From NCBI GenBank assembly GCA_900180385.1, contig FXLX01000004.1, positions 2,166-66,165 on the forward strand: a stretch of 64,000 bases of DNA, given 5' to 3'. Every line of letters begins with the position of its first letter. The first letter of the stretch is position 1. Shown here one piece after another: positions 5,639 through 64,000 of this stretch. Source of the stretch: an uncultured Candidatus Thioglobus sp. Lineage in GTDB: Bacteria; Pseudomonadota; Gammaproteobacteria; PS1; Pseudothioglobaceae. A program made the position numbers and the translations under genes. The notes under the pieces are model-generated. The model was not told the origin of the DNA. It saw only the letters and a program-made list of their open reading frames with translations, and did no database searches.

Positions 5639-8600
5639 GTGAAAGATTTATTAGCTATATTAAAGCAAGAAAATAAAGAGCAAGATTTTGATGCAATTAG
5701 AGTTGGCCTAGCTTCTCCTGAGAAGATTCGTTCATGGTCATATGGTGAGGTTAAAAAACCTGAAACTATTAACTACCGTACATTCAAACCTGAAAGAGAA
5801 GGTTTATTCTGTGCGAAAGTATTCGGTCCAATGAAAGACTTTGAGTGTTTATGTGGTAAATACAAGCGCATGAAATTCCGCAATGTTGTCTGTGAGAAGT
5901 GTGGTGTTGAAGTTACCTTTTCTAAGGTACGTCGTGAGCGTATGGGTCACATCGAATTAGCAGCGCCTGTTGCACATATTTGGTACCTTAAGTCTCTACC
6001 TTCACGTCTAGGTCTATTAATGGATATGACGCTTAAGGATATTGAGCGTGTTTTATATTTTGAAGCATTTTTAGTAACAGATCCTGGTTCGACACCGTTA
6101 GTACACAAGCAGTTATTAACTGAAGAAATGTATTTTGATGCGCTTGACGAATATGGCGATGATGAGTTTGAAGCTAAGATGGGTGCAGAAGCAATCCAAG
6201 ATGTATTGGCAGATATGCAGCTTGAAAAAGAAGCGGCAAACTTACGTGAAGATAGTCTTAACACTAAATCTCAAACTAAGCTTAAGAAGTACAACAAGCG
6301 TCTTAAATTAATCGATTCATTAATCAAATCAGGCAACAAACCTGAGTGGATGATTCTAAAAGTATTGCCAATTCTTCCGCCAGATCTACGTCCATTAGTG
6401 CCGTTAGATGGTGGTCGTTTTGCAACCTCTGATTTGAATGATTTATACCGTCGTGTCATTAACCGTAATAATCGTTTAGCGCGTTTATTAGAGCTTGATG
6501 CACCAGAGATTATTGTTCGTAATGAAAAGCGTATGCTGCAAGAAGCGGTAGATTCATTAATCGATAACGGTCGTCGTGGCCGTGCGGTGATGGGTAATAA
6601 TCGTCGCCCTCTGAAGTCTATCTCAGACATGATCAAAGGTAAGCAAGGTCGTTTCCGTCAAAACTTACTAGGTAAGCGTGTTGACTATTCTGGCCGTTCG
6701 GTGATCGTTTGTGGTCCATACCTTAAATTACACCAGTGTGGTTTACCAAAGAAAATGGCATTAGAATTATTCAAGCCATTTATCTATAACCGTCTTCAAG
6801 CTAAAGGCTTGGCATCTACAATTAAAGCTGCTAAGAAAATGGTTGAAGCTGAATTACCAGAAGTATGGGACATCTTAGAAAAGGTAGTGCATCAGCACCC
6901 AGTTCTATTAAACCGTGCACCAACACTTCACCGTTTAGGCATTCAAGCGTTTGAACCATTACTAATTGAAGGTAAGGCGATTCAATTGCATCCATTAGTT
7001 TGTGGCGCATTTAACGCTGACTTTGACGGCGATCAAATGGCGGTACACGTACCATTATCTGAAGAAGCTCAGTTAGAAGCAAGAACATTAATGCTTGCAT
7101 CAAACAATGTATTACACCTAGCATCAGGCGATCCAATTATCGTACCTTCTCAAGACGTAATCTTGGGCTTGTACTACATGACGCGTGATAAGATTAATCA
7201 AAAAGGTGAAGGCATGGTGTTTACATCACCTTCTGAAGCTTTGAATGCTTATGAAGCTGGCCATGTAACACTGCATGCAAATATCAAATTACGAATCCAA
7301 GATTACGTTAAAAACGAAGCAGGAAAATTCGAGCCGAGTTCTAAGCGTATTGTAGATACAACAGTGGGCCGTGCAATTTTCTCAAGAATTCTACCAAACG
7401 GCTTATCGTTTGATTTAATTAATGAGGCAATTTCTAAAAAGGTTGTGTCTAATTTAATTCATGTTTGTTACCGTATGCAGGAATTAAAAGAAACAGTTAT
7501 GTTTGCTGACCAAATGATGTACATGGGCTTCCAATACTCAACTAAATCAGGTATTTCTTTCTGTTCAAATGACATGACCATTCCAGATTCTAAAGCTGGC
7601 ATGATCGATGATGCAGAAGCACAAGTTAAAGATATTCAAGATCAGTTCTCTAAAGGTGTTGTTACAGATGGCGAACGCTACAATAAAGTGATCGATATTT
7701 GGTCTCGTACCTCTGAAAAAGTTGCGAAAGCAATGATGGATGAAATTGGTTTTGAAGATTTTGAAACTAAAGACGGAAAAACTGAAAAACTAGCCTCATT
7801 TAATTCGGTATACATGATGGCTGATTCTGGTGCTCGTGGTTCACCTGCACAGATGAGACAGCTTGCAGGTATGCGTGGTTTGATGGCGAAGCCAGATGGC
7901 TCAATTATTGAAACACCAATTACTTCAAACTTCCGTGAAGGCTTGAATAACATGCAATACTTTATTTCTACTCACGGTGCTCGTAAAGGTCTAGCCGATA
8001 CAGCACTTAAAACGGCTAACTCAGGTTACTTGACGCGTCGTTTGGTAGATGTTGGACAAGATCTAGTTATTACTGAAGAGGATTGCGGTACTGAAAATGG
8101 TATGATGATGAAATCTGTTATTAACGGCGGTAATATTGTGCAAACATTAGGTGCAGCGGTATTAGGTCGCGTGGTTGCTGAAGATGTGTTAATTCCAGAT
8201 ACGTACGATATCTTTGTGCCAAAAGGTCATTTGATCACATTGGATAACTCAGACAAAATTAACGAATTAGGCATTGAGTCAATTAAGATTCGATCTACAA
8301 TTACTTGTGACACTCGCCAAGGTGTTTGTGCCAGTTGTTATGGTAACGACATGGCTCGTGGCCATAAGATTGGTGTTGGTGAAGCAGTTGGTGTTATTGC
8401 GGCACAATCAATTGGTGAGCCGGGTACGCAGTTAACAATGCGTACATTCCACATTGGTGGTGCAGCATCTGCATCAACTGCAGTGAGCAGTATTAACGTA
8501 AACGTTGATGGTACAGCACACTTTGAAAACCTTAAGGCAATTAAAAATGCTAACAACGATCTAGTAATTATTTCTAGAACTGCTGTTGTAACTATTAGAA

Positions 8601-9823
8601 ACACTAAAGGTCAAGATGTAGAGCGCTACAAGATTCCGTATGGTGCAATTGTTCATGTTCAAGAAGGTGGTAAAGTTACTGCAAAAGAAAAAATTGCAGA
8701 CTGGGATCCGCATACACATCCAATTATTACAGAGCAATCTGGCCGAGTTGTATTTGTTGATTTTGAAGAAGGCATCACGGTTAACAGAAACACTGATCCA
8801 TTAACAGGCTTAACATTCTTTGAAATGATTGCTGAAGAAGAAAGATCTGCTGCAGCGAAAGGCTTAAAGCCGATGATTAAGATGGTTGAAGAGGGTAATT
8901 CTGAAATTATATTGTCAACGCATTACTTACCTTCAATGGTTAAGATTCATTTAGAAGATTCTCAAGTAATTTCTGCAGGTGAAGTGCTTGCTAAGATTCC
9001 TAAAGACCAATCTAAGACAAGTGATATTACCGGTGGTTTGCCACGTGTTGCTGATTTATTTGAAGCACGTAAAGCTAAAGATCATTCAATTCTTGCAGAA
9101 GAGACGGGTGTTATTAGCTTTGGTAGTCCAACTAAGAGTAAGGATCGTTTGATCATTACATCTACTGATGGCGAAGCTACTGAAATGATGATCCATAAAT
9201 GGCGTCAAATTAACGTTTTTGACGGTGAAACTGTTGAAAAGGGTGATGTAATTTCTGATGGACCGTCTAATCCGCATGATATCTTGCGCTTATTGGGTGT
9301 TGAGAAATTAGCAAATTATGTGGTTAAAGAGGTTCAGGATGTTTATCGCCTACAAGGTGTAAATATTTCTGACAAGCACATTGAAGTTATCGTTAAGCAA
9401 ATGCTTCGTAAAGTTGAAGTGCTTGATGTAGGTGATTCTAGTTTTGTAAATGGCGAAACAGCTGAATATGTAAGAGTGATTGAAGCAAATAAGCAATTAA
9501 CTGCTCAAGGTAAGAGTCTGATAACTTACCAGCGCTTACTAATGGGTATTACTAAAGCTTCATTAGCAACTGAATCATTCATCTCAGCCGCTTCTTTCCA
9601 GGAGACAACTCGAGTGTTAACTGAAGCGTCTACAACAGGTCGTGTGGATACACTACAAGGCTTAAAAGAGAATGTAATTGTTGGTCGTTTGATTCCAGCA
9701 GGAACAGGCTTTAAGTACCATCAGCAGAAACGTGCTAAACGTGCTGAAACGATGGTTCAAGCTGCAGATGCAGAAATGGCATTAGCAGCAGAGCTAAGTG
9801 AAGCGGAGGAAGCTTCAGAGTAA
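5639..9823 (+). CDS. rpoC: RNA polymerase beta' subunit (GTG start)
   Basis: 1394 aa; [12 protein letters not shown] catalytic motif, Zn-finger cysteines. Confidence 0.99.
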
Positions 9824-51581: not shown

Positions 51582-52526
51582 CTAGTCAAATAAGGCATCG
51601 ACAAATTCTTTTGTATTAAACAGCTTAAGGTCATCAATACCTTCGCCAATACCAATAAATCGAATCGGTAAATTAAGCTCATCAGAGATGGCAAACAACA
51701 CACCGCCTTTGGCTGTACCGTCAAGTTTGGTAATACTTAAGCCGCTTAACTCGACCGCTTTATTAAACTCCTTGGCTTGATTAACCGCATTTTGGCCAGC
51801 GCCACCATCAATCACCAGCATCACCTCGTGTGGAGCGGCTTCGTTTTGCTTGGTAATGACACGCTTAATTTTTTCTAATTCTTGCATTAGATTACCCTGA
51901 GTATGCAACCGACCTGCGGTATCAGCAATTAAGATGTCAATATTTTTAGCTTGTGCCGACTGATATGCATCAAAAATAACACTGGCTGAATCTGCACCCG
52001 TTGATTGAGCAACCACGGTAATATCATTGCGCTCGCCCCATACTTTAAGCTGCTCAACAGCTGCCGCCCTAAAGGTGTCACCCGCTGCCAACATAACCGA
52101 TTTTCCCTCAGCCTGAAAACGCTTAGCGAGCTTACCAATGGTGGTAGTCTTACCAGCACCATTGACACCAACCACTAAGATAACAAAAGTTTCATTAATG
52201 TCAGTATTAAGTTGATTGTCATCAATCAGCAGTTTGGCTAACTCAAATTTTAAAAATTCATAAACACCGTCAGAGTCTTTTAAAATTTTACGGCTGGCAT
52301 TTTTTCGCACTGATTCCAATACTTTATCTGTGGTATTGATGCCGATATCTGCGGTGATTAACAACATCTCTAATTCATCAAGTAAGTCATCATTAATGGC
52401 TTTTTTACCTAATAATAAAGAGGCCAACCCTGAGCCGAGTTTTTTTCGTGATTTGAATAAACGCTCTTTGAGAGATTGAGGTTTTTCTACTTTAGTAGAT
52501 TTGTCTTTTTTAAAAAAACTAAACAA
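51582..52526 (-). CDS. ftsY: SRP receptor FtsY
   Basis: GVNGAGKTTT, DTFRAAA, DTAGR, TKLDGTAKGG. Confidence 0.97.
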   Translation of the reverse strand: MFSFFKKDKSTKVEKPQSLKERLFKSRKKLGSGLASLLLGKKAINDDLLDELEMLLITADIGINTTDKVLESVRKNASRKILKDSDGVYEFLKFELAKLLIDDNQLNTDINETFVILVVGVNGAGKTTTIGKLAKRFQAEGKSVMLAAGDTFRAAAVEQLKVWGERNDITVVAQSTGADSASVIFDAYQSAQAKNIDILIADTAGRLHTQGNLMQELEKIKRVITKQNEAAPHEVMLVIDGGAGQNAVNQAKEFNKAVELSGLSITKLDGTAKGGVLFAISDELNLPIRFIGIGEGIDDLKLFNTKEFVDALFD

Positions 52527-52551
52527 GGCTTCTCGCTATAATGATTGAACT

Positions 52552-53889
52552 ATGAAGATACTAATTTTACTAGCCTTTTTTTTAAGCGCCCAAGCAATTT
52601 CAAATTCTAACACTACCGTTATAGGTCTTGCCTATGAAGGAATTACTCAAGCAAGTTTGAAAAATGGGCTAAAAATTATCGTCAAAGTTGATAGCAGGGC
52701 ACCAGTATTTATCTCTCAGCTTTGGTATAAAGTGGGCGCTAGTAATGAATCTAGGCCTAATACGGGTATTTCTCATATGCTTGAACATATGATGTTTAAA
52801 GGTACACGCCAATATCCAGTGGGTGAATTTTCACGCATTATTGCTAAAAATGGTGGTGATGATAATGCTTTTACCTCTAAAGACTATACGGCTTATTATC
52901 AAAAAATGCACAATTCAAAATTAGAATTAGCCATTAAGATGGAAGCTGATCGAATGCGTAACCTTACTTTTTCTAGTCGTGAGCTGGAAAAAGAAAGGCA
53001 GGTGGTTATCGAAGAAAGACGACTACGCGTTGAGGATAGTCCTAATGCGAAAGTATTTGAACAATTACGTATTATTTCTTATGATAAATCTGGCGCTTAT
53101 CATGCACCTGTGATTGGTTTTCAGGCTGATATTGAGACTTATCGATTGAGTGATTTGAGGCGTTGGTATGAAAAATACTACGCACCTAATAATACTACTT
53201 TAGTGGTGGTGGGTGATGTTGATCCAAAGCAAGTGATTGGTTATGCGCAGCAATATTTTTCAAGTTATGCGTTTAATTCAAATATTGATACGCTTAAAAA
53301 TAAGCCGCCTATTGCACTAATAAAACAAAGTAAACAACTTAAACTAAAAGCCAAGTTGCCGTTATATACCATGGCATTTCACGTGCCAAGCTTGGTCAGT
53401 GCAAAAGATAAATCACAGGCTTATCAGTTAGAGATGTTGGCTTACGTACTGGATAACAACCTGTCAAAAACCTTAACTCGAGATCGTCAAATAACTTCAA
53501 GTATCAGCGTAAGCTATCGACTATACGATAAATACCAAACCCAATTTAATATTAGTTTTATTGCCGCCCAAGGGATTGAAAACAACACAATTATTAATAC
53601 CATTAAACAACAAGTGGCAGAGTTGATTAAACACCCTGAACTTTTAAAAGATGAGGTTAGGCGCACTAAGGCGCAACTGGAGGCAAATTTTGTTTTTGAG
53701 CAAGATCAAATCTCTACTCAATCCTACTACTTAGGCATGCTGGAAACAGTTGGACTTGGTATTGATAAAATGTTTACATATGTCGACAAAATGAACGAAG
53801 TAACCGATAAAGATTTATCAAATGTCGCCAACATGTATTTAAATTTTGACAACGTAAATACGGTAGAGTTACTACCTCAAGGATTTTAA
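52552..53889 (+). CDS. M16 family zinc peptidase, catalytic subunit
   Basis: Inverted zinc motif HMLEH, NAFTSKDYT. Confidence 0.92.
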   Translation: MKILILLAFFLSAQAISNSNTTVIGLAYEGITQASLKNGLKIIVKVDSRAPVFISQLWYKVGASNESRPNTGISHMLEHMMFKGTRQYPVGEFSRIIAKNGGDDNAFTSKDYTAYYQKMHNSKLELAIKMEADRMRNLTFSSRELEKERQVVIEERRLRVEDSPNAKVFEQLRIISYDKSGAYHAPVIGFQADIETYRLSDLRRWYEKYYAPNNTTLVVVGDVDPKQVIGYAQQYFSSYAFNSNIDTLKNKPPIALIKQSKQLKLKAKLPLYTMAFHVPSLVSAKDKSQAYQLEMLAYVLDNNLSKTLTRDRQITSSISVSYRLYDKYQTQFNISFIAAQGIENNTIINTIKQQVAELIKHPELLKDEVRRTKAQLEANFVFEQDQISTQSYYLGMLETVGLGIDKMFTYVDKMNEVTDKDLSNVANMYLNFDNVNTVELLPQGF

Positions 53890-55178
53890 TGAAATTATTA
53901 ATTGTATTGATATCGCTAATTGGTAGTGCGCAAGCTGAGCTTGATATTTCTCAGTGGTATACGCCTGAAGGTGCCAAGGTGTTGTTCACCCAAACTAAAG
54001 GTTTACCCATGCTTGATATTTCAGCTGTGTTTGATGCAGCCAGTAGCCGTGATGGCGAGCAATTTGGTCTTGCATCACTAACCAGTGGCTTAATTGGCAC
54101 AGCAACTCAAAGCATGACTGAAGAGCAAATTATCAATCAGTTTGAATCTTTAGGTACTGAATTTTCAACAACGAGTTTAAAAGACATGGCAATTATCTCA
54201 ATGCGTAGCTTAACGAGAGATTCAGTCTTGAGACAATCGTTATCACTTTTTAGTGAAGTAATAGCTAAAGTAGATTTTCAACAGGCGTATTTAAGTCGCG
54301 AAAAGAAGCAAATTTATCAAGCCATTGAATCAGCTAAGCAAAGCCCTGGGCGAGTAGCCAGTTTAAAATTTAATCAACTGGTGTTTGCTGGTCATGCTTA
54401 TGCTCACTCAAAAATTGGCACTAAGGATAGTATCAAAGATATTCAGTTGGCCGATTTACAAAATTTTTACCATCAATATTATGTGGCAAAAAACCTAACC
54501 ATTGCTTTGGTGGGTGATATTAGCAAAACCAAGGCCAAGCAAATTGCACGCCAAATTTCTCATGGGCTCAATATGGGCAAAAAAGCACCTAAAAATCCGT
54601 TGGTTAAAAAACTGCAAAACTCACACAATATTCACATTGAGTTTCCCTCTAAGCAAACCCATTTGTTGATTGGACAAACTGGGATTAATCGCCATCATGC
54701 TGATTATTACGCACTATATTTGGGTAATCATATTTTGGGTGGCAGTGGTTTAAGCTCTATATTGAGCAATGAAGTGCGTGAGAAAAAAGGCTTGGCTTAT
54801 TCGGTGGTGAGTTATTTTAGCAAGATGAAATCAAATGGATTATTCCTAATCAAACTACAAACCAAAAATTCACAAGCAAATGAAGCCAAAACAATCGCTT
54901 TAGAAACGTTGAAAAATTTCAGAAATAATGCGATTGATGCGCAAAAACTCCAAGATGGCAAGGATAATATCATTGGTGGTTTTGCATTAGAGGTTGCAAG
55001 TAATGCGAATATTCTTACTTATCTATCCATTATTGGATTTTATGACCTATCTTTGGACTTTTTAGCCACTTTTATCGACAAAATAAAGCCAATTAGCATA
55101 CAAGACATCCAAAAAGCTTACGCACGACTGATTGATATGGATAAACTCGTTGTTTTGACCGTTGGTGCTACAAAATAG
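53889..55178 (+). CDS. M16 family peptidase, non-catalytic partner
   Basis: Insulinase fold without HxxEH; EVREKKGLAYSV motif. Confidence 0.88.
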   Translation: MKLLIVLISLIGSAQAELDISQWYTPEGAKVLFTQTKGLPMLDISAVFDAASSRDGEQFGLASLTSGLIGTATQSMTEEQIINQFESLGTEFSTTSLKDMAIISMRSLTRDSVLRQSLSLFSEVIAKVDFQQAYLSREKKQIYQAIESAKQSPGRVASLKFNQLVFAGHAYAHSKIGTKDSIKDIQLADLQNFYHQYYVAKNLTIALVGDISKTKAKQIARQISHGLNMGKKAPKNPLVKKLQNSHNIHIEFPSKQTHLLIGQTGINRHHADYYALYLGNHILGGSGLSSILSNEVREKKGLAYSVVSYFSKMKSNGLFLIKLQTKNSQANEAKTIALETLKNFRNNAIDAQKLQDGKDNIIGGFALEVASNANILTYLSIIGFYDLSLDFLATFIDKIKPISIQDIQKAYARLIDMDKLVVLTVGATK

Positions 55179-55274
55179 CCCATTTTCATTATTTCCGAAA
55201 TTTTACAAATTTCTGTATTTACATGTTGGTTAAAATAAGGCGCAATTGTTACCACCATTAATTCAGTAAATAAT

Positions 55275-56723
55275 ATGTTTGAACAAACCTTTAAAAATAT
55301 TGACGACATTCTGCATAAAGATGCGGGTTGTGGCAGTGAGCTAGACTACGTAGAGCAAACCTCTTGGGTATTGTTTTTAAAATATTTAGATGATCTAGAG
55401 CAAGACAAGCAAACCGCTGCCGAACTTATTGGCAAAGACTATACACCTATTATTGCCAGCAAATTCCAATGGACAACTTGGGCAGCGCCAAAGCTGGATA
55501 ATGGCGATATTGATTACAACGCTTTAACAGGCGATGATCTACTAGATTTTGTAAATAATGAGCTGTTCCCATACCTCGAAAAATTTCAAGTTGATGCGAC
55601 CAGTGCCAACACCATTGAATACAAAATTGGTGAAATTTTCTCAGAGCTAAAAAATCGTATTCAAAGTGGTTACAACTTGCGTGAAGTGCTAATGTTGATT
55701 GATAATCTACGTTTTAGAACGCACAAAGAAAAGCACGAAATGAGCCACCTATATGAAAGCAAAATTAAAAATATGGGCAATGCTGGGCGCAATGGTGGTG
55801 AATACTATACGCCGCGTCCACTAATCAGAACCATTGTTAAAGTGCTTGCACCCAAAATAGGGCAAAGTATTTACGATGGTGCAGTTGGCTCGGCAGGTTT
55901 CTTGGTTGAAGCCTTTGATTATCTTAATCAGCCTAACTTATCTACCGAAGATACTACCATTCTACAAAAAAATACTTTCTACGGCAAAGAGAAAAAATCT
56001 CTCGCTTACATCATTGGCATTATGAATATGATTTTGCATGGGGTAGAAGCACCCAATATTATTCATACCAATACACTGGCTGAAAGCCTTACTGACATTC
56101 AAGAAAAAGACCGCTACAACGTAGTTTTGGCAAACCCACCATTTGGCGGCAAAGAGCGAGCAGAAGTACAACAAAACTTCCAGATTAAAACGGGTGAAAC
56201 GGCTTTTCTATTTTTACAACACTTTATTAAAATCCTTAAAGTCGGTGGCAGAGCGGGCATCGTTATTAAAAATACTTTTCTTAGTAATACTGATAACGCC
56301 TTCGTTGCACTACGCAAAGAGCTATTAAGCAGTTGTAATTTGCACACCGTGTTAGATTTACCAGGTGGTACATTCACAGGTGCAGGGGTAAAAACCATTG
56401 TGCTGTTTTTTGACAAAGGCACAGAAACAAAAAAGACTTGGTTTTATCAGCTCAATCTCAATAGAAATCTGGGCAAAACCAATCCACTTAATGAAAAAGA
56501 TTTGGTAGATTTTGTAACCCTACAAAAAACCTACGCGATAAGTGAAAATTCTTGGTCTATTAACATTAAAGATATTGATCAAGCCACTTTTGATTTATCT
56601 GTCAAAAACCCTAATACACTAAAAGAAGCGCCGTTAAGATCTCCACAAGAAATCCTAGCTGAAATGGAAGCACTAGATGTTGAAACTAAAAATATCTTGG
56701 CCAGTATTAAAAAGCTATTATGA
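55275..56723 (+). CDS. hsdM: Type I R-M m6A methyltransferase
   Basis: GEYYTPR, YDGAVGSAGF, NPPF. Confidence 0.95.
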   Translation: MFEQTFKNIDDILHKDAGCGSELDYVEQTSWVLFLKYLDDLEQDKQTAAELIGKDYTPIIASKFQWTTWAAPKLDNGDIDYNALTGDDLLDFVNNELFPYLEKFQVDATSANTIEYKIGEIFSELKNRIQSGYNLREVLMLIDNLRFRTHKEKHEMSHLYESKIKNMGNAGRNGGEYYTPRPLIRTIVKVLAPKIGQSIYDGAVGSAGFLVEAFDYLNQPNLSTEDTTILQKNTFYGKEKKSLAYIIGIMNMILHGVEAPNIIHTNTLAESLTDIQEKDRYNVVLANPPFGGKERAEVQQNFQIKTGETAFLFLQHFIKILKVGGRAGIVIKNTFLSNTDNAFVALRKELLSSCNLHTVLDLPGGTFTGAGVKTIVLFFDKGTETKKTWFYQLNLNRNLGKTNPLNEKDLVDFVTLQKTYAISENSWSINIKDIDQATFDLSVKNPNTLKEAPLRSPQEILAEMEALDVETKNILASIKKLL

Positions 56724-57712
56724 GCCAACAGCAAGACATCATTATTTATAACACAGCTGATGGCAAAGCCTCAGTTGCACTTTATGCTAAAGATGGCAAT
56801 GCTTGGATGAATCAAGCTCAGCTGGCAGAACTTTTTGACACCTCAAAACAAAACATAAGTCTACACATTGAAAATATATTAAAAGACAATGAGTTAGAGC
56901 AAAATTCAGTTGTCAAGGATTACTTGACAACTGCTGCAGATAACAAAAATTATAGGGTTGCTTTTTATTCCCTAGAGATGATTCTAGCCATCGGTTATAG
57001 AGTTAGAAGCAAAAGAGGAGTACAGTTTAGAATATGGGCAACTAATAATCTAAAAGAGTACATGGTTAAAGGCTTTTTAATGGATGACGAGCGCCTTAAA
57101 ACCCCTGATGGTAGGCCTGATTATTTTGATGAATTATTAAAAAGAATCCGTGATGTACGCGCTTCTGAAAAACGCTTCTATCAAAAAGTAAGAGATTTAC
57201 TCAGCCTTAGTAGTGATTACGACAAAAGCGATAAAGCCACACAAATGTTTTTTGCCGAAACCCAAAACAAACTGCTGTACGCCGTCACCCATAAAACAGC
57301 TGCAGAGTTAGTAATCAGTCGAGCTGATAAAGATAAATCTAATATGGCACTTACCTCTTGGCAAGGCTCTATCGTCCGCAAGCAAGATATTTTTATTGCC
57401 AAAAACTACCTAACTGAATCCGAAATAGACAGTCTTAATCGTTTAGTTGTTATCTTTTTAGAAACCGCAGAACTCAGAGTTAAAAATAGACAAGATATTA
57501 CCTTAAATTTTTGGCAAGAAAATGTTGATCGAATGCTTGAGTTTAACGACCAAAAAATACTCACTACTAAAGGAAAAATCAGTAAAAAGCAAATGCAACA
57601 GCAGGTGGGCGACACTTACGCACTTTTTAATCAAAAAAGAAAAATAGACGAAGCGCAAGCGATTGACTTAAAAGAATTGGAAGCCATTAAAAAAGTGATT
57701 GAAGATGAGTAG
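56720..57712 (+). CDS. RhuM-family (Virulence_RhuM) DNA-binding protein
   Basis: WMNQAQLAELF HTH-like start, YSLEMILAIGYRVRS, IRASEKRFY-like segment, AKNYL. Confidence 0.85.
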   Translation: MSQQQDIIIYNTADGKASVALYAKDGNAWMNQAQLAELFDTSKQNISLHIENILKDNELEQNSVVKDYLTTAADNKNYRVAFYSLEMILAIGYRVRSKRGVQFRIWATNNLKEYMVKGFLMDDERLKTPDGRPDYFDELLKRIRDVRASEKRFYQKVRDLLSLSSDYDKSDKATQMFFAETQNKLLYAVTHKTAAELVISRADKDKSNMALTSWQGSIVRKQDIFIAKNYLTESEIDSLNRLVVIFLETAELRVKNRQDITLNFWQENVDRMLEFNDQKILTTKGKISKKQMQQQVGDTYALFNQKRKIDEAQAIDLKELEAIKKVIEDE

Positions 57713-58853
57713 TATGAAGCAAGGCTGGGAATTGAAAGACTTTGAGGAGTGTATTGACAGGATTCCGAGAACTGCAAAGATACCAAAAAAGCAATTCTTG
57801 GTTGAGGGTAGTTACCCAATAATCTCTCAAGAGGATAGTTATATTAACGGCTATTGGGATAAGCCTGAAGATTTGCTTAAAGTGGATAGACTGCTTGTTA
57901 TTTTTGGCGATCATACAAAAAAATTGAAATATATTGATTTTGATTTTGTACTGGGCGCTGATGGAGTAAAAGCTCTTCTTCCTATAAAGACAATTGATGC
58001 TCGATTCTTCTATTATCAGCTTCAGTCTATTACTTTAAGCGATCTTGGGTATGCAAGACATTATCGGTTACTTAAACAAGAAAAGATTGCAATTCCATCC
58101 CTAGAAGAACAAAAACAAATTGTTGCTAAATTAGATCAAGCGTTTGTAGTGATTGACAAAGCCCGTGAAAATGCCAGCAAGAATCTTGAAAATGCTAAAC
58201 AACTATTCCAAAGCAAACTGAATGAAATTTTTAGCCAAAAAGGTGATGACTGGGTTGAAAAAAAGTTGGGTGAGATAACTACCAAGATTGGAAGTGGCGC
58301 AACACCTAGAGGAGGGCAATCTTCATATAAAGAATCTGGAATACCCTTAATTAGAAGCCTTAATGTTTATGATGATGGTTTTAAAGAAAAAAAAACTAGC
58401 ATTTATAGACGATGCACAAGCTGAAAAACTTAATAATGTGATTATTGAGATGGGTGATGTTCTTCTTAATATTACAGGAGCATCGGTCGCAGGTGTTGTA
58501 TAGCTCCTAATAACTTCTTGCCTGCTAGAGTTAATCAGCATGTATCCATTATTCGTTTAAAGCAAGATACATTGTCTTCAGAATTTTTGCATTATTTATT
58601 AATTTCAAAAGTAAATAAAGATCTACTACTAGGAATAGGAGAGCAAGGGGCAACTAGACAAGCTATCACCAAGGTGCAAATACAAAATTTTGTTGTTTCT
58701 TATCCAAAAAATAATAAAGAGCAAGAGCATTCTGTCAAGTCAATACGCAAGCTAAAGAAACAAACTCAATCTCTTGAATCTAAGTATCAAAAAGAGTTAG
58801 AATCTTTAGAAGAGCTTAAAAAATCAATCTTACAAAAAGCCTTTGCAGGATAG
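57705..58853 (+). pseudogene. hsdS: Type I R-M specificity subunit with +1 and -1 frameshifts
   Basis: TRD1, PSLEEQKQIV central repeat, GSGATPRGG, ARVNQHV, ELKKSILQKAF; +1 in A9 (58387-95) and -1 near 58491. Confidence 0.88.
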
Positions 58854-58887
58854 TTGTATTAACGTATAATTCATTACCAATTTGGTA
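58843..58887 (+). promoter_or_regulatory. Internal sigma70 promoter and palindromic operator upstream of higB
   Basis: TTGCAG-N16-TATAAT (58843-58870) followed by TACCAA-T-TTGGTA (58875-58887). Confidence 0.65.
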
Positions 58888-58901
58888 TACTTTTATATAT
58901 T

Positions 58902-59225
58902 TTGAAAATATTTTTTAACGATAAAAAAATTGCAGAATTGTGCGCTAAGCAGGCATCCAGAAAAAAGTTGGGCATTAAGTGCGCTAAAGTATTAGAACAA
59001 CGATTGCTTGTATTAAATGCGACCAAGGTGTTGGGTGATTGTAAGCAGGGCAACCCTCATCCATTAAAGGGTGATAAAAAAGGTCAATTTGCAATGAACT
59101 TAGAGGGTGGATATCGTTTGGTTTTTACAGCAAAAAATCCTGTACTTACCACTAAAGACGGTGCAACAGACTGGAAAAAGGTGAAAGAAATAACCATTAT
59201 TTTTATTGGAGACTATCATGAGTGA
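58902..59225 (+). CDS. higB: HigB/RelE-family toxin (TTG start)
   Basis: HPLKGDKKGQFAMNLEGGYRLVF and C-terminal GDYH; toxin-first order. Confidence 0.85.
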   Translation: MKIFFNDKKIAELCAKQASRKKLGIKCAKVLEQRLLVLNATKVLGDCKQGNPHPLKGDKKGQFAMNLEGGYRLVFTAKNPVLTTKDGATDWKKVKEITIIFIGDYHE

Positions 59226-60327
59226 TGCAAAATATGAGTTTAAGCCAGATTGGTTGCATCTTGTGCCACCAGGCGAGATAATTTTAGAAAGTATGCAAAA
59301 TATTGGGCTATCTCAAAAACAATTAGCACAGCGTATAGAGTACAGCACTAAGCATATTCATAAGTTGTTAAAAGGTGAGGCGCCGATTAACTCTGATACT
59401 GCTTTAAGACTGGAAAAGGCTTTGGATATGCCGGCGTATCTTTGGCTGAATTTGGAAAACGCCTATCGTGAGGCATTAGCACAAAAGACTGAAACAGAGG
59501 CATTGAGCGCAGAAGCAGATTGGCTTAAAGAATTGCCATTAACTGATATGAAAAAATGGCAATGGGTTAAGAAATTTTCCAATAAGGGCGAGCAAGTCAA
59601 GGAGTGTTTGAAGTTTTACGGTGTGTCTTCAGTTGCTGCTTGGCATGAAGAGCAAAAAAATTACCAAGTTGCTTTTAAGGCTTATGAAAATTTTTCAATG
59701 AATGAGGTGGCTATTCAGACATGGTTAAGGGTGGGTGAAATAAACGCAAGGGAAATCAATTGCCAGCCTTTTGACAAGCAAAAGCTAAAACAAAGTTTGC
59801 CAGCACTAAGGGAATTAACTTTGCTAAATGATCCTGATGATTTCTTGCCAACATTGCAAGAAATATGCGCTCAGTCTGGTGTGGCTATTGTGTTTGCACC
59901 AACGCCAAATAAATGCCCTATGAGTGGAGCAACCAAATGGATTACCTCAAACAAGGCGTTATTATTGCTGAGTTTGAGGCATAAAACCAATGATCATTTA
60001 TGGTTTGCATTTTTTCATGAAATTGGGCATATTCTTAAGCATAAAAAACAATTATTTTTAGAAGGGGCGGGTAAAAAAAGTTTTAAGAATGATGAAAAAT
60101 TAGAGCATGAAGCAAATGAATTTTCCTCAGAGATGTTAATCCCGAAACAACATAATATAGAATTATCCACACTGATAGGTTTGGAAGCTATTAAAAAATT
60201 TGCTAAAAAAATCAATATTGCTCCCGGCATTGTGGTGGGCAGATTGCAACATCAAGGAAGTCTGAATTGGGGGAGCGGCAACAAGCTAAAAGTTAAGTAT
60301 GATTGGGAAAAGCCACAATCTAAATAA
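59218..60327 (+). CDS. HigA-type XRE HTH fused to an ImmA/IrrE (peptidase M78) domain
   Basis: PPGEII...LSQKQLAQRIEYSTKHIHKLLKG HTH; HEIGH zinc motif and EHEANEF. Confidence 0.88.
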   Translation: MSDAKYEFKPDWLHLVPPGEIILESMQNIGLSQKQLAQRIEYSTKHIHKLLKGEAPINSDTALRLEKALDMPAYLWLNLENAYREALAQKTETEALSAEADWLKELPLTDMKKWQWVKKFSNKGEQVKECLKFYGVSSVAAWHEEQKNYQVAFKAYENFSMNEVAIQTWLRVGEINAREINCQPFDKQKLKQSLPALRELTLLNDPDDFLPTLQEICAQSGVAIVFAPTPNKCPMSGATKWITSNKALLLLSLRHKTNDHLWFAFFHEIGHILKHKKQLFLEGAGKKSFKNDEKLEHEANEFSSEMLIPKQHNIELSTLIGLEAIKKFAKKINIAPGIVVGRLQHQGSLNWGSGNKLKVKYDWEKPQSK

Positions 60328-60336
60328 TAAAATATT

Positions 60337-62673
60337 ATGAACGAAGCAGAAACCAGAGCCGAACTAATAGACCCTAAGCTAGTCGCTTGTGGCTGGGGCG
60401 TGGTTAAGGGTTCTAAAATATTGCGTGAGCGTGATGTTTGCAAAATTACTGATGGACGTATACAAGTGGGCGGTGGACGCTCTAAGCCGTTGATTGCTGA
60501 TTATATCTTGATGTATAAAGGTATTAAATTGGCTGTTGTAGAGGCGAAAAGTAGCGATTTGAATGTGGGTGAGGGTGTGGTACAAGCCAAGCTGTACGCT
60601 CAAAAACTTGGGCTGGAAACCACTTACGCTAGCAACGGCAAAGAGATTTATAGTATTTGCCTTAAAACGGGCGCGGAAAGCTTGGTAGAAGATTTTCTTA
60701 GCCCTGATGAACTTTGGGATAAAACTTTCTCTGACCAAAACCATTGGCGCGAGCTGTTTGCTACTATTGCCTTTGAGGATAAATCAGGCACATGGCAACC
60801 ACGTTATTATCAAGAAATAGCTATTAATAAGGCGCTTGAAGCCATTGCTCAGAATAAAGACAGAATATTACTTACCCTTGCCACAGGCACAGGCAAAACA
60901 GCAATTGCTTTTCAAATAGCATGGAAGTTGTTTCATACACGCTGGACGCTTAAGCGTGATGGCAAAAGACGACCAAGAATACTATTTTTAGCAGATAGAA
61001 ATATTTTGGCCAATCAAGCTTATAACTCATTTTCAGCCTTTCCTGATGACGCGATGGTACGCATCAAGCCTTCGGAGATTAAGAAAAAAGGCAAAGTACC
61101 AACCAATGGCAGTATCTTTTTTACGATATTTCAATCATTCATGTCTGGCACGAATGAAGAGGGTGAGTCAGAACCAAATTTTGGGCAATATCCAAAAGAC
61201 TATTTTGATTTTATTATCATTGATGAGTGCCATCGAGGTGGTGCAAATGATGAGGGTAACTGGCGATCAATACTAGATTATTTTTCACCTGCAGTGCAAC
61301 TGGGCTTAACTGCCACACCAAAGCGAAAAGACAATGTAGATACCTATGCTTATTTTGGCGAGCCGATTTATGTGTACTCTTTGAAAGACGGTATTAATGA
61401 TGGATTTTTAACACCGTTTAAAGTTAAGCGCATTCAAACTACCTTGGATGATTATATTTACACCAATGATGACGCTGTTGTTGAAGGAGAAATTGAGCAA
61501 GGCAAGATTTACGAAGAGGAGGATTTTAATAAAATTATTGAAATTAAAGCCAGAGAAGCTGAACGCGTTAAGATTTTTATGGATGATGCGAACAAAAATG
61601 ATAAGACCATTATTTTTTGTGCAACTCAAGTCCATGCTGCCATGGTGCGTGATTTGGTTAATCAATACAAAAAGAATAAAGATCCAAATTATTGTGTACG
61701 CGTAACGGCGAATGACGGCACTATTGGTGAAATATTTTTAGCGCAGTTTCAAGATAATGAGAAACTCATCCCTACCGTGCTTACAACCTCACAAAAGCTG
61801 TTAACTGGCGTGGATGCGAGAAATATTCGCAATATTGTGCTGATGCGCCCTGTGAAGCAAATTATTGAATTTAAGCAAATTGTTGGACGTGGCACAAGGC
61901 TGTTTGATGGCAAAGAATTTTTTACAATTTATGATTTTGTAGATGCTTATCAGCGATTTTCTGATCCTGAGTGGGATGGTGAACCTGTTAAAGATGAGGG
62001 TAATGTTTATAATCCTCCTGAGCCAGAGGATGATTCAGGCGTAAGAGAAGAAGATGAGGATTATAAGCTGAAATCTAAGCAGCAAAAAATCAAGATAAAG
62101 CTTAAAAATGGTAAAGAGCTAGAAATACAGCACATGATATCAACCTCGTTTTGGAATGCAGATGGTAAGCCAATTTCTGCAGAGGAGTTTTTGAATAATT
62201 TATTTGGTGAGCTGCCTAACTTCTTTAAAAATGAAGCAGAATTGCGAAAACTATGGAGTAATCCAATCACCAGAAAAACTTTACTGAAAAAGCTTGATGA
62301 TGCCGGATTTGGTAAAGAGGAATTGACCACATTGCAAAAGCTAATTAACGCCGAAAATAGTGATTTATTTGATGTGCTTGAATATGTGTTTAACAGCGAT
62401 ATAAAGCCAATCACTAGAAAAGATAGAGTGGCAATGGCAAAATCTACAATCTTTGCGTTACTTGATGATAAACAGCAAGAGTTTATTGATTTTGTATTAA
62501 AGCAATATATTAAAACAGGCGTTGGTGAGCTGGATCAAGAAAAATTACCAATTTTATTAACCAATAAATATCAATCTCTAGAAGATGCTAAAGAAGTATT
62601 GGGTGATGTAAAAAATATCAGCTCATTATTTATTGAGTTTCAACAATATTTATACGAACAAAAAGCGGCCTAG
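60337..62673 (+). CDS. hsdR: Type I R-M restriction subunit (EcoAI/EcoEI-like)
   Basis: VVEAK nuclease motif, ATGTGKT, DECH, GLTATP, GRGTR, C-terminal helical domain. Confidence 0.94.
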   Translation: MNEAETRAELIDPKLVACGWGVVKGSKILRERDVCKITDGRIQVGGGRSKPLIADYILMYKGIKLAVVEAKSSDLNVGEGVVQAKLYAQKLGLETTYASNGKEIYSICLKTGAESLVEDFLSPDELWDKTFSDQNHWRELFATIAFEDKSGTWQPRYYQEIAINKALEAIAQNKDRILLTLATGTGKTAIAFQIAWKLFHTRWTLKRDGKRRPRILFLADRNILANQAYNSFSAFPDDAMVRIKPSEIKKKGKVPTNGSIFFTIFQSFMSGTNEEGESEPNFGQYPKDYFDFIIIDECHRGGANDEGNWRSILDYFSPAVQLGLTATPKRKDNVDTYAYFGEPIYVYSLKDGINDGFLTPFKVKRIQTTLDDYIYTNDDAVVEGEIEQGKIYEEEDFNKIIEIKAREAERVKIFMDDANKNDKTIIFCATQVHAAMVRDLVNQYKKNKDPNYCVRVTANDGTIGEIFLAQFQDNEKLIPTVLTTSQKLLTGVDARNIRNIVLMRPVKQIIEFKQIVGRGTRLFDGKEFFTIYDFVDAYQRFSDPEWDGEPVKDEGNVYNPPEPEDDSGVREEDEDYKLKSKQQKIKIKLKNGKELEIQHMISTSFWNADGKPISAEEFLNNLFGELPNFFKNEAELRKLWSNPITRKTLLKKLDDAGFGKEELTTLQKLINAENSDLFDVLEYVFNSDIKPITRKDRVAMAKSTIFALLDDKQQEFIDFVLKQYIKTGVGELDQEKLPILLTNKYQSLEDAKEVLGDVKNISSLFIEFQQYLYEQKAA

Positions 62674-62684
62674 GTTTTTGATTA

Positions 62685-63026
62685 ATGAAAACAACCGAGC
62701 ATCTTTTTTCCTACGGAACTTTACAAAATACATCTGTGCAGTTGGAAACCTTTGGACGTAAGTTGGAAGGCCATGCAGATCAGCTATTGGGCCATAAGCT
62801 AGAAATGGTGGAAATTTGTGATTGTGATGTAGTGGTGTTAAGTGGTGAAACCCATCATCCTATTGCAGTGCTATCTAAGGATAAAAATGATTTTGTATCA
62901 GGTGTTATTTTTGAAATTACACCTGAAGAGTTAGCCCAATCAGATGAGTATGAAGTAAATGAGTATAAGCGTGTTATGGGTGAGTTTAAATCGGGTCAAA
63001 AAGCTTGGGTGTACGTGCAGGCTTAA
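62685..63026 (+). CDS. Gamma-glutamylcyclotransferase (AIG2-like) family protein
   Basis: LFSYGTLQ start, SDEYE catalytic-Glu region, AWVY end. Confidence 0.8.
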   Translation: MKTTEHLFSYGTLQNTSVQLETFGRKLEGHADQLLGHKLEMVEICDCDVVVLSGETHHPIAVLSKDKNDFVSGVIFEITPEELAQSDEYEVNEYKRVMGEFKSGQKAWVYVQA

Positions 63027-63033
63027 AAGCTAT

Positions 63034-64000
63034 TTAAAGTAGTACTTTTTCAATATTGACTGATTTTATAAAGTCTTTCTGCCAATTTTTACCTAATTGC
63101 TGCTCAGCAATAAGTTCAATTGGATAAATCGGCTCGATATTGGTTGTGTGTTGGTAGCGTGATAAACCTTGGCGACAAGCAGGGCAAGTTGTTAGCATTT
63201 TGATAGGCTTATCAGTCGCAGTAATAGTTTGAATATCTTTTTTGATTTCCAGCTCTTTTCTGTATTTGGCTTGTTTGGCGATATCAGGGCGTGCAACCGC
63301 AAAGGTGCCTGCTTCACCACAACAACGATCATTGCTAACAACCTCACTATTTACAATCTTGGAAATGACTGTGCTAGATTCATCAGATTTGATAGGATCG
63401 TGACAAGGCGCATGATACAAGTATTGCTCGCCTGTAGCTTCTAAGGTGACATTTTGATCGAGTAAGTATTCATGAATATCACCCAAACTCGAATCTTTAA
63501 AGATATCACCTAGCTCGTAGGTTGCAAGTTGATCAATACAAGTACCACATGAGGTGAGTACTTGCTTGATATCTAGGTAGTTTAAGGTATTTGCCATGCG
63601 ATGGAACAGTACGCGGTTATCGGTTGAAATAGCCGTACTCTTGGCATCAAAACCGCCGGCTCGTTGTGGGTAGCCACAGCATAAATAGCTTGGCGGTAAA
63701 ACCACTTTAACGCCTTGATGATAAAGTAGTGCAACAGTGGCCAAGCCAATTTGAGAATATAAACGCTCTGAGCCACAGCCTGGGAAATAAAACACACTGG
63801 GCGAATCAGCATTGGATTTAGTTGGGTGTGACAAAATTGGCACACTGGTTGTATCTTGAATGCCTAATAACTCGCGCATTGGTTTTAAACCAGTATCCGT
63901 AGGCAAAGGCTTGTCTAATAACGTAATAAGCTCAATCGCCAAACTTGGCTTGCCAACGGTTTTATTTGGAATTTTATTAATTAAGGGTTTGGCTAGGCGC
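63034..64000 (-). CDS. Fe-S oxidoreductase with C-terminal CCG domains, 3' part (starts beyond window)
   Basis: YFPGCGSE, LCCGYP, RCCGEAG, TTCPAC; frame stays open from 63942 to the window edge. Confidence 0.8.
   Translation of the reverse strand, partial: RLAKPLINKIPNKTVGKPSLAIELITLLDKPLPTDTGLKPMRELLGIQDTTSVPILSHPTKSNADSPSVFYFPGCGSERLYSQIGLATVALLYHQGVKVVLPPSYLCCGYPQRAGGFDAKSTAISTDNRVLFHRMANTLNYLDIKQVLTSCGTCIDQLATYELGDIFKDSSLGDIHEYLLDQNVTLEATGEQYLYHAPCHDPIKSDESSTVISKIVNSEVVSNDRCCGEAGTFAVARPDIAKQAKYRKELEIKKDIQTITATDKPIKMLTTCPACRQGLSRYQHTTNIEPIYPIELIAEQQLGKNWQKDFIKSVNIEKVLL

Follow-up and report, generated by a model that had tools for sequence, protein, structure and literature searches.

A stretch of 64,000 nucleotides (nt) from an uncultured Candidatus Thioglobus sp. 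(contig FXLX01000004.1), called here the window, was analysed for a run of genes at positions 55275-63026 that begins with hsdM and ends with a GGACT-family gene. By its family matches the locus is predicted to be a type I restriction-modification (R-M) operon of the EcoAI/FtnUII family (type IB) with two internal cargo slots. The slot between hsdM and hsdS (the M-S slot) holds rhuM. In the one between hsdS and hsdR, the S-R slot, a HigB-like putative toxin gene is followed by a gene for a HigA-type helix-turn-helix protein fused to an M78 peptidase (HTH-M78; together the pair, or S-R cassette). The type IB class was assigned because HsdR matches the NCBIfam EcoAI/FtnUII equivalog. We consider it likely that the operon serves as a scaffold whose two slots take up interchangeable, independent accessory defence modules, and that the GGACT gene is an unrelated neighbour. 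An original prediction, made from the DNA letters, had placed cargo in three slots; it held for RhuM in the M-S slot and for the pair in the S-R slot, and failed for the GGACT gene (there called GGCT), which belongs to the chromosomal flank.

Sibling operons were drawn from the contexts of HsdR proteins 93-96% identical to that of the window. The gene order hsdM-rhuM-hsdS-HigB-like-HTH/M78-hsdR, which the original prediction had proposed to look for in other genomes, was found in at least 21 metagenome contigs, and the order in the window is therefore not a chance arrangement. In these contigs (L086-L095) the operon lies behind RadC and reads RadC-hsdM-rhuM-hsdS-168aa-HigB-like-HTH/M78-hsdR, the 168-amino-acid (aa) open reading frame being an addition ahead of the pair. 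When L087 was compared with the window, HsdM, RhuM and HsdR were 92%, 94% and 93% identical; the HigB-like and HTH-M78 proteins were 46% and 55% identical, and the pair of L086-L095 is read as belonging to this cassette family, as a divergent second allele for that slot. Other siblings carried unrelated cargo. In L096, which keeps rhuM between hsdM and hsdS as L086-L095 do, a complete Lamassu system stood between hsdS and hsdR in the order LmuA-LmuC-LmuB (2e-40 for LmuA, 1e-16 for LmuC and 1e-105 for LmuB). L097 occupies the chromosomal site of the window (ftsY-M16-M16...GGACT-DUF3683); there RhuM is replaced by a HEPN/MNT pair, and the HigB-like/HTH-M78 pair by a Bro-N gene (PDC-S13, 1.9e-121).

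The borders of the exchanged segments fell at the ends of genes. The window and L097 were collinear over 52000-56739 and 60334-64000 at 89-94% nt identity, with everything between replaced. Against L086 and L096, at the other chromosomal site, the window matched over 55265-57729, over the hsdS core and C-terminal region, and over 60336-62672. Breakpoints were placed at gene ends because the DNA matches stop there in these comparisons. Since similarity to the operons at the other site begins at 55265 and stops at 62672, hsdM forms the 5' end and hsdR the 3' end of what is one mobile unit of six genes (hsdM to hsdR, 55275-62673). A role for special recombination sites where the slots begin and end was considered and rejected: similarity ends at the hsdS stop codon and resumes 1-3 nt before the hsdR ATG. 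As far as this simple end and resumption of similarity shows, with no repeat analysis beyond it, ordinary homologous recombination suffices; the cassettes would probably be exchanged by recombination within the conserved hsdM, hsdS-core and hsdR sequences.

The same exchange was visible within metagenome runs. Sequencing depth from rhuM to the HTH-M78 gene was about 10 in run X2, 7.7 in run X4 and about 150-260 in run X1, against about 145, 15 and about 530, respectively, over hsdR and the flanks, so that the cassette region reached 7-50% of the hsdR depth. In runs X1, X2, X4 and X6, contigs matched the window from the hsdR start onward (60334-60338) and carried at least three different sequences upstream of it. 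Three 30-mers abutting the hsdR start had no match in any sibling or homologue locus compared; the alternative sequences at 60334-60338 are read as further S-R cargo variants. Together, the partial depth and the alternative hsdR junctions mean that both slots are polymorphic cargo positions within natural populations. The closest relatives are labelled as Bathymodiolus thermophilus thioautotrophic gill symbiont, Catillopecten margaritatus gill symbiont, 'uncultured Gammaproteobacteria' metagenome-assembled genomes (MAGs) or 'symbiont metagenome' runs. Going by these labels and the G+C content of about 37%, the host is probably a sulfur-oxidising symbiont of the SUP05 clade.

The GGACT gene did not travel with the operon. 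As third cargo it was rejected, because it stays with a chromosomal flank that has no R-M genes and is absent at the operon's other site. It followed hsdR only at the chromosomal site of the window (L097-L100), where it was contiguous with the DUF3683/CCG gene. Behind RadC the gene after hsdR was a different one, and in L096 a 76-aa open reading frame (ORF). The corresponding gene of L086 we take to be HAD-like. Locus L101 contained the M16 tail, other genes, the GGACT gene (80%) and a CCG/DUF3400 gene (88% to that of the window), all of this without hsd genes. These arrangements mark the spot between the M16 peptidase genes and the GGACT gene as a general variable region. No match to the GGACT protein was obtained in the PADLOC search. 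Between the M16 gene and the GGACT gene of L101 (100-5400) lie a sensor kinase with a phosphonate-binding domain, a LuxR-type response regulator and others. Small indels between runs were also seen at 62674-62701, in the hsdR-GGACT spacer and the first GGACT codons: 5 nt or 1 nt were absent at 62680, and 2+2 nt were affected at 62698 and 62701, all at the junction of the mobile unit and the flank.

The seven genes themselves were confirmed as co-oriented and tightly packed, as predicted, with all ORFs on the + strand and gaps of -4, -14, +48, -8, +9 and +11 nt in gene order. Pfam, PADLOC and NCBIfam searches bore out the family identities of hsdM, rhuM, hsdS, hsdR, the pair and the GGACT gene (Table 1). 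The hsdM frame is intact in the window, and HsdR scored 784.9 bits against NF046051 (cut-off 550) with ResIII, EcoEI_R_C and HSDR_N domains.

Table 1. Coordinates in the window, strand and family assignment of the operon and its neighbours.
Feature	Position	Strand	Description
hsdM	55275..56723	+	482 aa; type I methyltransferase subunit; Pfam N6_Mtase 2e-60 plus HsdM_N; PADLOC MTase_I 1.5e-156
rhuM	56720..57712	+	330 aa; M-S slot cargo; 4-nt overlap with hsdM; Pfam Virulence_RhuM 7e-106; PADLOC PDC-S05 1.9e-141
hsdS	57699..58853	+	specificity subunit, two target-recognition domains (TRDs); Methylase_S and PADLOC Specificity_I match all three pieces
Cassette promoter-like region with candidate operator	58842..58901	+	promoter scan, palindrome, conservation
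HigB-like gene	58902..59225	+	107 aa, TTG start; first gene of the S-R cassette; Pfam HigB-like_toxin E=0.0027
HigA-HTH/M78 gene	59218..60327	+	369 aa from ATG; Pfam HTH_3 plus Peptidase_M78
hsdR	60337..62673	+	778 aa; type IB restriction subunit; NCBIfam NF046051 8.8e-236
GGACT/AIG2-like gene (GGCT)	62685..63026	+	113 aa; Pfam GGACT 1e-9; flank, outside the system
CCG-domain (glpC-like) gene	63034..63942	-	convergent, after GGACT; the window ends inside the gene

The family matches support the original prediction that the S-R cassette encodes a HigB-type toxin and an HTH-metallopeptidase. The Pfam match of the HigB-like protein was weak, and a profile built from its 44-member family matched Proteus vulgaris HigB (4mct_B) at E=1.3e-5; in that alignment the HPLKGD motif was aligned and supplied the correspondence to HigB His54. 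Among the 44 aligned proteins H53, W91 and H106 were invariant, D104 was present in at least 90%, and the C-terminus read GDYH(D/E). The DYH of this C-terminus we take, by its position and not from a printed alignment, to be Asp90/Tyr91/His92 of HigB. In HigB itself His54, Asp90, Tyr91 and His92 are crucial to the cleavage of mRNA (PMC5027501). The conserved His and Asp-Tyr-His residues of the family therefore suggest that a HigB-type active site is kept, and the protein is a putative ribosome-dependent mRNA endonuclease of the RelE/HigB family. Relative to HigB, an insertion of about 15 aa precedes its last strand.

For the partner protein, an alternative TTG start at 59206 is possible, giving a length of 369-373 aa; the gene overlaps the HigB-like gene by 8 nt and stops 9 nt before hsdR. 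The HTH part scored 56.2 bits against the HigA model TIGR02607 (cut-off 47.7), and PDB sequence-profile matches to HigA ranged from 8e-12 to 1e-10, 6.6e-11 being the value quoted for the HigA profile. The AlphaFold2 (AF2) model (pLDDT 86.8) returned, by Foldseek, HigA folds for the N-terminal domain at TMt 0.75-0.80 and the CBASS-associated M78 peptidase CapP (7t5t, E=2e-4) for the C-terminal part. Matching the latter, PADLOC capP was hit at 5.6e-12, and the Peptidase_M78 motif HExxH plus one further His were invariant in 31 aligned homologues. Among the defence models, the protein matched PD-Lambda-2_B of PADLOC (PDLC03982; 1.3e-35, residues 9-351 on profile positions 47-377 of 402). PD-Lambda-2_A was matched neither by the window HigB-like protein nor by any of the 44 family members at E<=1. 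With these profiles and the promoter region described next, the cassette is read as an autonomous HigBA-type unit with a peptidase extension.

Its predicted autonomy extends to expression. The 48-nt spacer before the HigB-like gene contains TTTGCA-17-TATAAT, a 10/12 promoter match with the -10 at 58865-58870, followed at 58875-58887, just 5' of the TTG start, by the perfect palindrome TACCAA-T-TTGGTA. The arrangement TATAAT-N4-TACCAATTTGGTA is kept 5' of the HigB-like TTG start in the window, L087, L082 and L003, despite only 46-66% identity between the coding regions of these four cassettes. It is likely a shared promoter and predicted HigA operator, and on this conserved promoter-proximal palindrome the cassette is probably autoregulated. 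Taken together, the promoter and terminator calls were at the chance level (26 found, 25.7 expected), and conservation backs the cassette promoter only. In the three other loci the motif is found at about 7543-7582 (L087), 7720-7760 (L082) and 9600-9640 (L003).

The only characterised relative of the cassette is PD-lambda-2 ('HigB, Xre/IrrE TA') of Escherichia coli ECOR42, which protects against lambda-vir by abortive infection. In that system the peptidase fusion is toxic by itself and its toxicity is relieved by the HigB-like protein, while defence requires a third gene (PMC9519451). The source sequence of that system is ECOR42 contig QOYB01000002; the membership of the window pair in it rests on the PADLOC models. 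In the reading we favour, R-M would cut unmodified incoming DNA as the first line of defence, and the S-R cassette would form an independent toxin-antitoxin (TA)-type abortive-infection module. Its HigA domain would bind the operator and neutralise HigB. The M78 domain, like ImmA, IrrE and CapP, would answer an infection or DNA-damage signal by cleaving the HTH or the linker in cis or in trans, and HigB, once released, would shut down translation. The linkage to R-M would then come from co-transfer and shared selection, and possibly from read-through that co-expresses hsdR; the R-M complex would not physically mask the toxin.

In PD-lambda-2 it is the peptidase fusion, not the HigB-like protein, that is toxic when overexpressed, so that HigB is here a putative toxin only. 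The conserved HigB catalytic residues argue for HigB as the toxin, and the PD-lambda-2 experiment argues for the fusion. We lean slightly towards a toxic HigB neutralised by the HTH-M78 fusion. The inverse polarity, as in PD-lambda-2, with a toxic peptidase fusion neutralised by the HigB-like protein, is possible and the less probable of the two. The proposal of HigB as an abortive-infection backup thus gained from the homology of the peptidase to a PD-lambda-2 component (PMC9519451) and did not gain as to the identity of the toxin.

How closely the cassette is tied to R-M was examined through its homologues elsewhere. Searches with the HTH-M78 protein gave more than 1400 relatives, and at least 468 genomic loci encode the pair. 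Of 80 genome loci spread over many phyla, about 70 had a HigB-like ORF directly upstream of the peptidase gene, mostly overlapping it. An R-M gene, whatever its type, is the immediate neighbour of about 20 of the 80 homologous pairs. R-M parts accounted for 13 of 48 downstream neighbours (N6_N4_Mtase, N6_Mtase, Methylase_S, HSDR_N/ResIII, BglII or MmeI) and for 7 of 52 upstream neighbours (N6_Mtase/Eco57I, Methylase_S or ResIII), the 52 upstream loci including also four UvrD-PDDEXK proteins. With iterated profiles, N6-methyltransferase-like or SF2-helicase-like genes were detected at most 10 kb away in 28 loci. The other immediate neighbours were heterogeneous, housekeeping or diverse genes, and a conserved third gene after the pair was rejected, neighbours being heterogeneous in the 48 downstream and 52 upstream loci alike. 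Inside type I operons the arrangements were hsdM-hsdS-[pair]-hsdR (L036), hsdM-hsdS-[pair] (L077), hsdM-[pair]-hsdS-hsdR (L056 and L073), [pair]-hsdS (L030) and hsdR-hsdS-AAA_13-[pair]-hsdM (L003). Outside them, UvrD/PDDEXK-[pair]-type III mod-res was found in L043 (checked by Pfam) and L065 (by matching gene sizes), and type IIG methyltransferase-[pair]...PLD/SNF2 helicase in L071. In the closest lineage the pair lies after hsdR in L082 and between HinfI R-M and hsdM fragments in L083-85. Co-occurrence of the cargo with hsd genes elsewhere, whose absence the original prediction had named as evidence against itself, was thus seen in siblings and in unrelated type I operons. The association of the pair with R-M is real but loose, since R-M type and position vary and about three quarters of the pairs lie elsewhere. 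R-M adjacency is far above that of a random gene, by a baseline that is an estimate and not a computed background.

Two side observations belong to the pair family. In L003, a related gammaproteobacterial MAG, the gene beside the pair inside the type I operon (8038-9177) is of the AAA_13 family, to which PrrC/RloC-type ABC ATPases belong. In L103 (7015-7956) and L104 (7821-8783) the HTH-M78 homologue has a thymidylate synthase gene 1-2 kb away on the other strand. These thymidylate synthase neighbours are on unrelated plasmids (Pantoea agglomerans and Leptospira interrogans) and may be a coincidence.

The wide distribution of the family also bears on whether the pair, perhaps with RhuM, is a selfish addiction module that only stabilises its carrier island or plasmid, its position in the operon being a tolerated insertion site. 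Occurrence on 37 plasmid records, on a few phages and in many housekeeping contexts agrees with this, as does the classical HigBA architecture with predicted autoregulation. Against it, the homologous PD-lambda-2 protects from lambda-vir by abortive infection (PMC9519451), the neighbours of the pair are far richer in R-M and defence genes than those of a random gene (on the estimated baseline given above), and the other occupants of the same slot are defence systems. We regard pure selfishness as very unlikely.

Several observations weigh against the reading that we favour. The same cassette family entered the same slot of one operon lineage at least twice, and it turns up again in unrelated type I families, there too in S-R or M-S slots (L036, L077, L056 and L073). 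Such repeated slot acquisition hints at a functional tie to R-M closer than mere co-location. A defence activity demonstrated for RhuM was not found in the literature, and hsdS is broken in the window sequence, so that R-M may be off in that strain. Gene C, which PD-lambda-2 requires, is absent here and the A component is unmatched, which makes defence by two genes an extrapolation; moreover, the PD-lambda-2 B protein is toxic by itself (PMC9519451), contrary to the preferred polarity.

The closer tie could take the form that the original prediction had drawn from EcoprrI, in which PrrC occupies the hsdS-hsdR slot: the toxin would be kept latent via R-M, or wired to it, and would fire when an Ocr/ArdA/Stp-type protein disables R-M or when the M78 domain senses damage made by HsdR. 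The pair sits in the S-R position as PrrC does, it is found inside unrelated type I operons, two divergent alleles occupy the same slot of near-identical operons, and the pair of L003 stands beside the AAA_13 ATPase. Its M78 domain, furthermore, is CapP-like. CapP responds to DNA damage. On the other side, only about 20 of 80 pairs abut R-M genes. PrrC is, to our knowledge, almost exclusively embedded in type I R-M. Both the R-M type and the position of the pair vary: it is found in M-S and in S-R slots of type I operons, next to type III, HinfI or type IIG genes and, in L082, after hsdR and outside the operon. The cassette, moreover, has its own candidate promoter and operator and its own antitoxin and sensor, and the S-R slot holds Lamassu or Bro-N/PDC-S13 in sibling strains. 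The hallmark of PrrC, an ABC ATPase joined to an anticodon nuclease in one protein, was not found in the window pair, which consists of the HigB-like and HTH-M78 proteins. The analogy therefore found no specific support, although the repeated embedding lends it some on comparative grounds, and a guard of this kind seems improbable to us. Equally doubtful is its more specific version, in which the cassette is a dedicated restriction partner whose M78 domain senses anti-restriction proteins or the DNA ends and single-stranded DNA made by HsdR, and then releases a translation-blocking RNase. If it were true, a restriction-wired cassette would be a second and mechanistically new class of R-M guard beside PrrC, and it would explain the repeated entry of the cassette into unrelated type I slots and upstream of type III operons.

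The place of the pair immediately before hsdR suggests another function. As a signal-cleavable repressor of the ImmR/ImmA, DdrO/IrrE or CapH/CapP type, here fused into one chain, the HTH-M78 protein could control hsdR, its promoter driving and its autorepression gating transcription of that gene, thereby delaying or boosting restriction after transfer or during infection, with HigB as a co-repressor or accessory. No terminator-like site separates the cassette from hsdR, which begins after a gap of 9 nt; hsdR follows directly after the pair in the window, L087, L036 and L022; and Foldseek returned, beside CapP for the peptidase, the R-M controller protein C.BclI for the HTH. Repressors of R-M islands exist, RptR being one of them (PMC12255303). 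Most homologous pairs, however, have no R-M gene downstream, and sibling hsdR genes sit behind Lamassu or Bro-N cargo that lacks HTH-M78. The conserved HigB catalytic residues would be needless in a pure regulator, and PD-lambda-2B is toxic alone (PMC9519451). A switch of this kind is therefore held to be unlikely, and independent modules on a common scaffold remain the reading that we prefer.

As to the M-S cargo, RhuM of this gammaproteobacterium is 73-80% identical to RhuM from Bacteroidota, Desulfobacterota and Campylobacterota. This is unusually strong for a putative defence gene and defeated structure prediction based on multiple sequence alignment. Built on 24 homologues, the AF2 model came out poor (pLDDT 57.9), since no retrievable homologue was less than 72% identical. 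With that model (pLDDT 57.9), Foldseek found nothing below E=0.01, the best entry being DdrC at TM 0.26, and a profile search of PDB sequences gave no match. RhuM is a candidate embedded defence gene, both by its match to PDC-S05 and by its embedding within R-M genes. RhuM genes are enriched beside type I R-M genes with an odds ratio of 14.4, and published examples of genes between hsd genes include RhuM, DUF1016, Fic/DOC and GIY-YIG genes (PMC9881135). In L105-L107 RhuM lies between a PLD/SNF2 helicase and an MmeI-type methyltransferase. Where it is replaced, at the same chromosomal site in L097, the HEPN/MNT genes are separate; the same pair occurs in L082, where one called gene (1800-3308) joins an NTP_transf_2/Polbeta (MNT-type) domain with Methylase_S and is preceded by an NTase_sub_bind (HEPN-like) gene. 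This is either a fusion of MNT with HsdS or a gene-calling error over an overlap of 4 nt.

As to hsdS, two 1-nt indels split the gene of the window into three frames (0, 1, 0), 57699-58424, 58363-58503 and 58518-58853. One lies in an A9 run at about 58387; the other is an A missing after 58490, where a single A stands. In four public runs, contigs of near-identical DNA read A8 at 58387 and have a further A behind 58490, both at the full depth of the local sequence. With both base changes the gene reads through to a 384-aa HsdS with two TRDs, and hsdS is thus intact at the population level. Both differences lie in A runs (A9 vs A8, A vs AA), 104 nt apart, and compensate each other. They may be errors of the consensus where the region is polymorphic, a knockout specific to the strain, or slippage such as has been described for phase-variable hsdS genes (PMC7383803). 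Alternative alleles of TRD1 and TRD2 coexist in the same runs, in which 57730-58095 and 58277-58759 are replaced, and one TRD1 junction corresponds to the allele of the free-living-type operon L086-L095. Several TRD alleles on one backbone mean several R-M specificities in the population. In length, 364 nt are exchanged for 382 other nt and 481 nt for 412, and a deletion form, with 58136 joined to 58758, was also present in the runs.

Housekeeping genes flank the operon: ftsY with two M16 peptidase genes lies upstream, and the convergent CCG-domain gene downstream. In relatives (L097) the counterpart of the gene at 63034-63942 is the C-terminal CCG portion of a 1227-aa DUF3683/FAD-binding/Fe-S protein. 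The G+C content is level across the region at about 0.35-0.40, about 37% overall. Exact-protein look-ups of the window HsdR and GGACT proteins gave no match. One RNA-seq run yielded low-depth identical contigs over parts of hsdM, the HTH-M78 gene and hsdR, weak evidence of transcription for which DNA carry-over is possible.

If the scaffold reading is right, a type I R-M operon acts as a docking scaffold in natural symbiont populations: hsdM and hsdR stay nearly constant, and a TA/abortive-infection pair, Lamassu, a Bro-N candidate and a HEPN/MNT pair would be the modules swapped in its two slots, at breakpoints defined to the single nucleotide. The compact two-gene relative of PD-lambda-2 also makes tractable which partner is toxic and what the peptidase senses, given the conserved HigB catalytic residues, the invariant M78 site and the conserved candidate operator.

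Compared with known systems, the operon agrees with EcoAI/FtnUII (type IB) in its HsdR equivalog, HsdM and two-TRD HsdS, and differs from them in the two embedded cargo modules and in the hsdS interrupted in this sequence. HigBA of P. vulgaris Rts1, E. coli and P. aeruginosa shares with the pair the toxin-first order, the HigB and HigA profile matches, the catalytic residues and, in the pair as a candidate, a palindromic operator at the promoter; the window antitoxin, however, has an extension of about 270 aa, helical plus M78, and the toxin the insertion mentioned above. ImmR-ImmA, DdrO-IrrE and CapH-CapP likewise combine an HExxH M78 domain of CapP-like fold with an XRE-type HTH, but there a separate peptidase cleaves a separate repressor and induces the operon, whereas the window has one fused chain together with a toxin. 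PD-lambda-2 resembles the pair most, with the HigB-like gene first and then a HigA-HTH fused to an ImmA/IrrE peptidase that fits the B model over nearly its full length. In contrast to it, the window pair is embedded in an R-M operon and lacks the P4-antitoxin-like C gene, hsdR starting 9 nt after the B-like gene, and its A component, though HigB-like, has no match to PD-Lambda-2_A.

PrrC lies between hsdS and hsdR in EcoprrI (10.1101/2024.01.29.577857), and the two loci are alike in having an abortive-infection-type toxin module in this slot of a type I operon. They differ in that PrrC combines an ABC ATPase with an anticodon nuclease, is kept masked by the R-M complex and is, as far as known, associated near-exclusively with type I R-M, and the window pair is of HigB type with its own antitoxin and with homologues that lie mostly away from R-M (about 20 of 80 adjacent). 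Defence genes embedded in type I R-M, BREX and DISARM operons have been reported by Payne et al., with PrrC as the model of backup defence; the main text of that paper makes no mention of HigB, M78 or RhuM (10.1101/2024.01.29.577857). The window operon shares with these cases the nesting of defence genes between hsd genes (RhuM being PDC-S05), the sibling cargo (PDC-S13 and Lamassu) and the rationale of co-transfer and backup defence. It differs in the level of the swapping, which is observed here in one operon lineage and inside single symbiont populations, its breakpoints falling exactly at gene ends. The statement of the original prediction that the combination was not a named system was therefore half right, RhuM being PDC-S05 of PADLOC, the pair a two-gene relative of PD-lambda-2 and the embedding already published. 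The operon accordingly follows a known pattern, and what is new, beside the cassette polymorphism documented in a symbiont population, is a two-gene PD-lambda-2-like pair that recurs in R-M slots.

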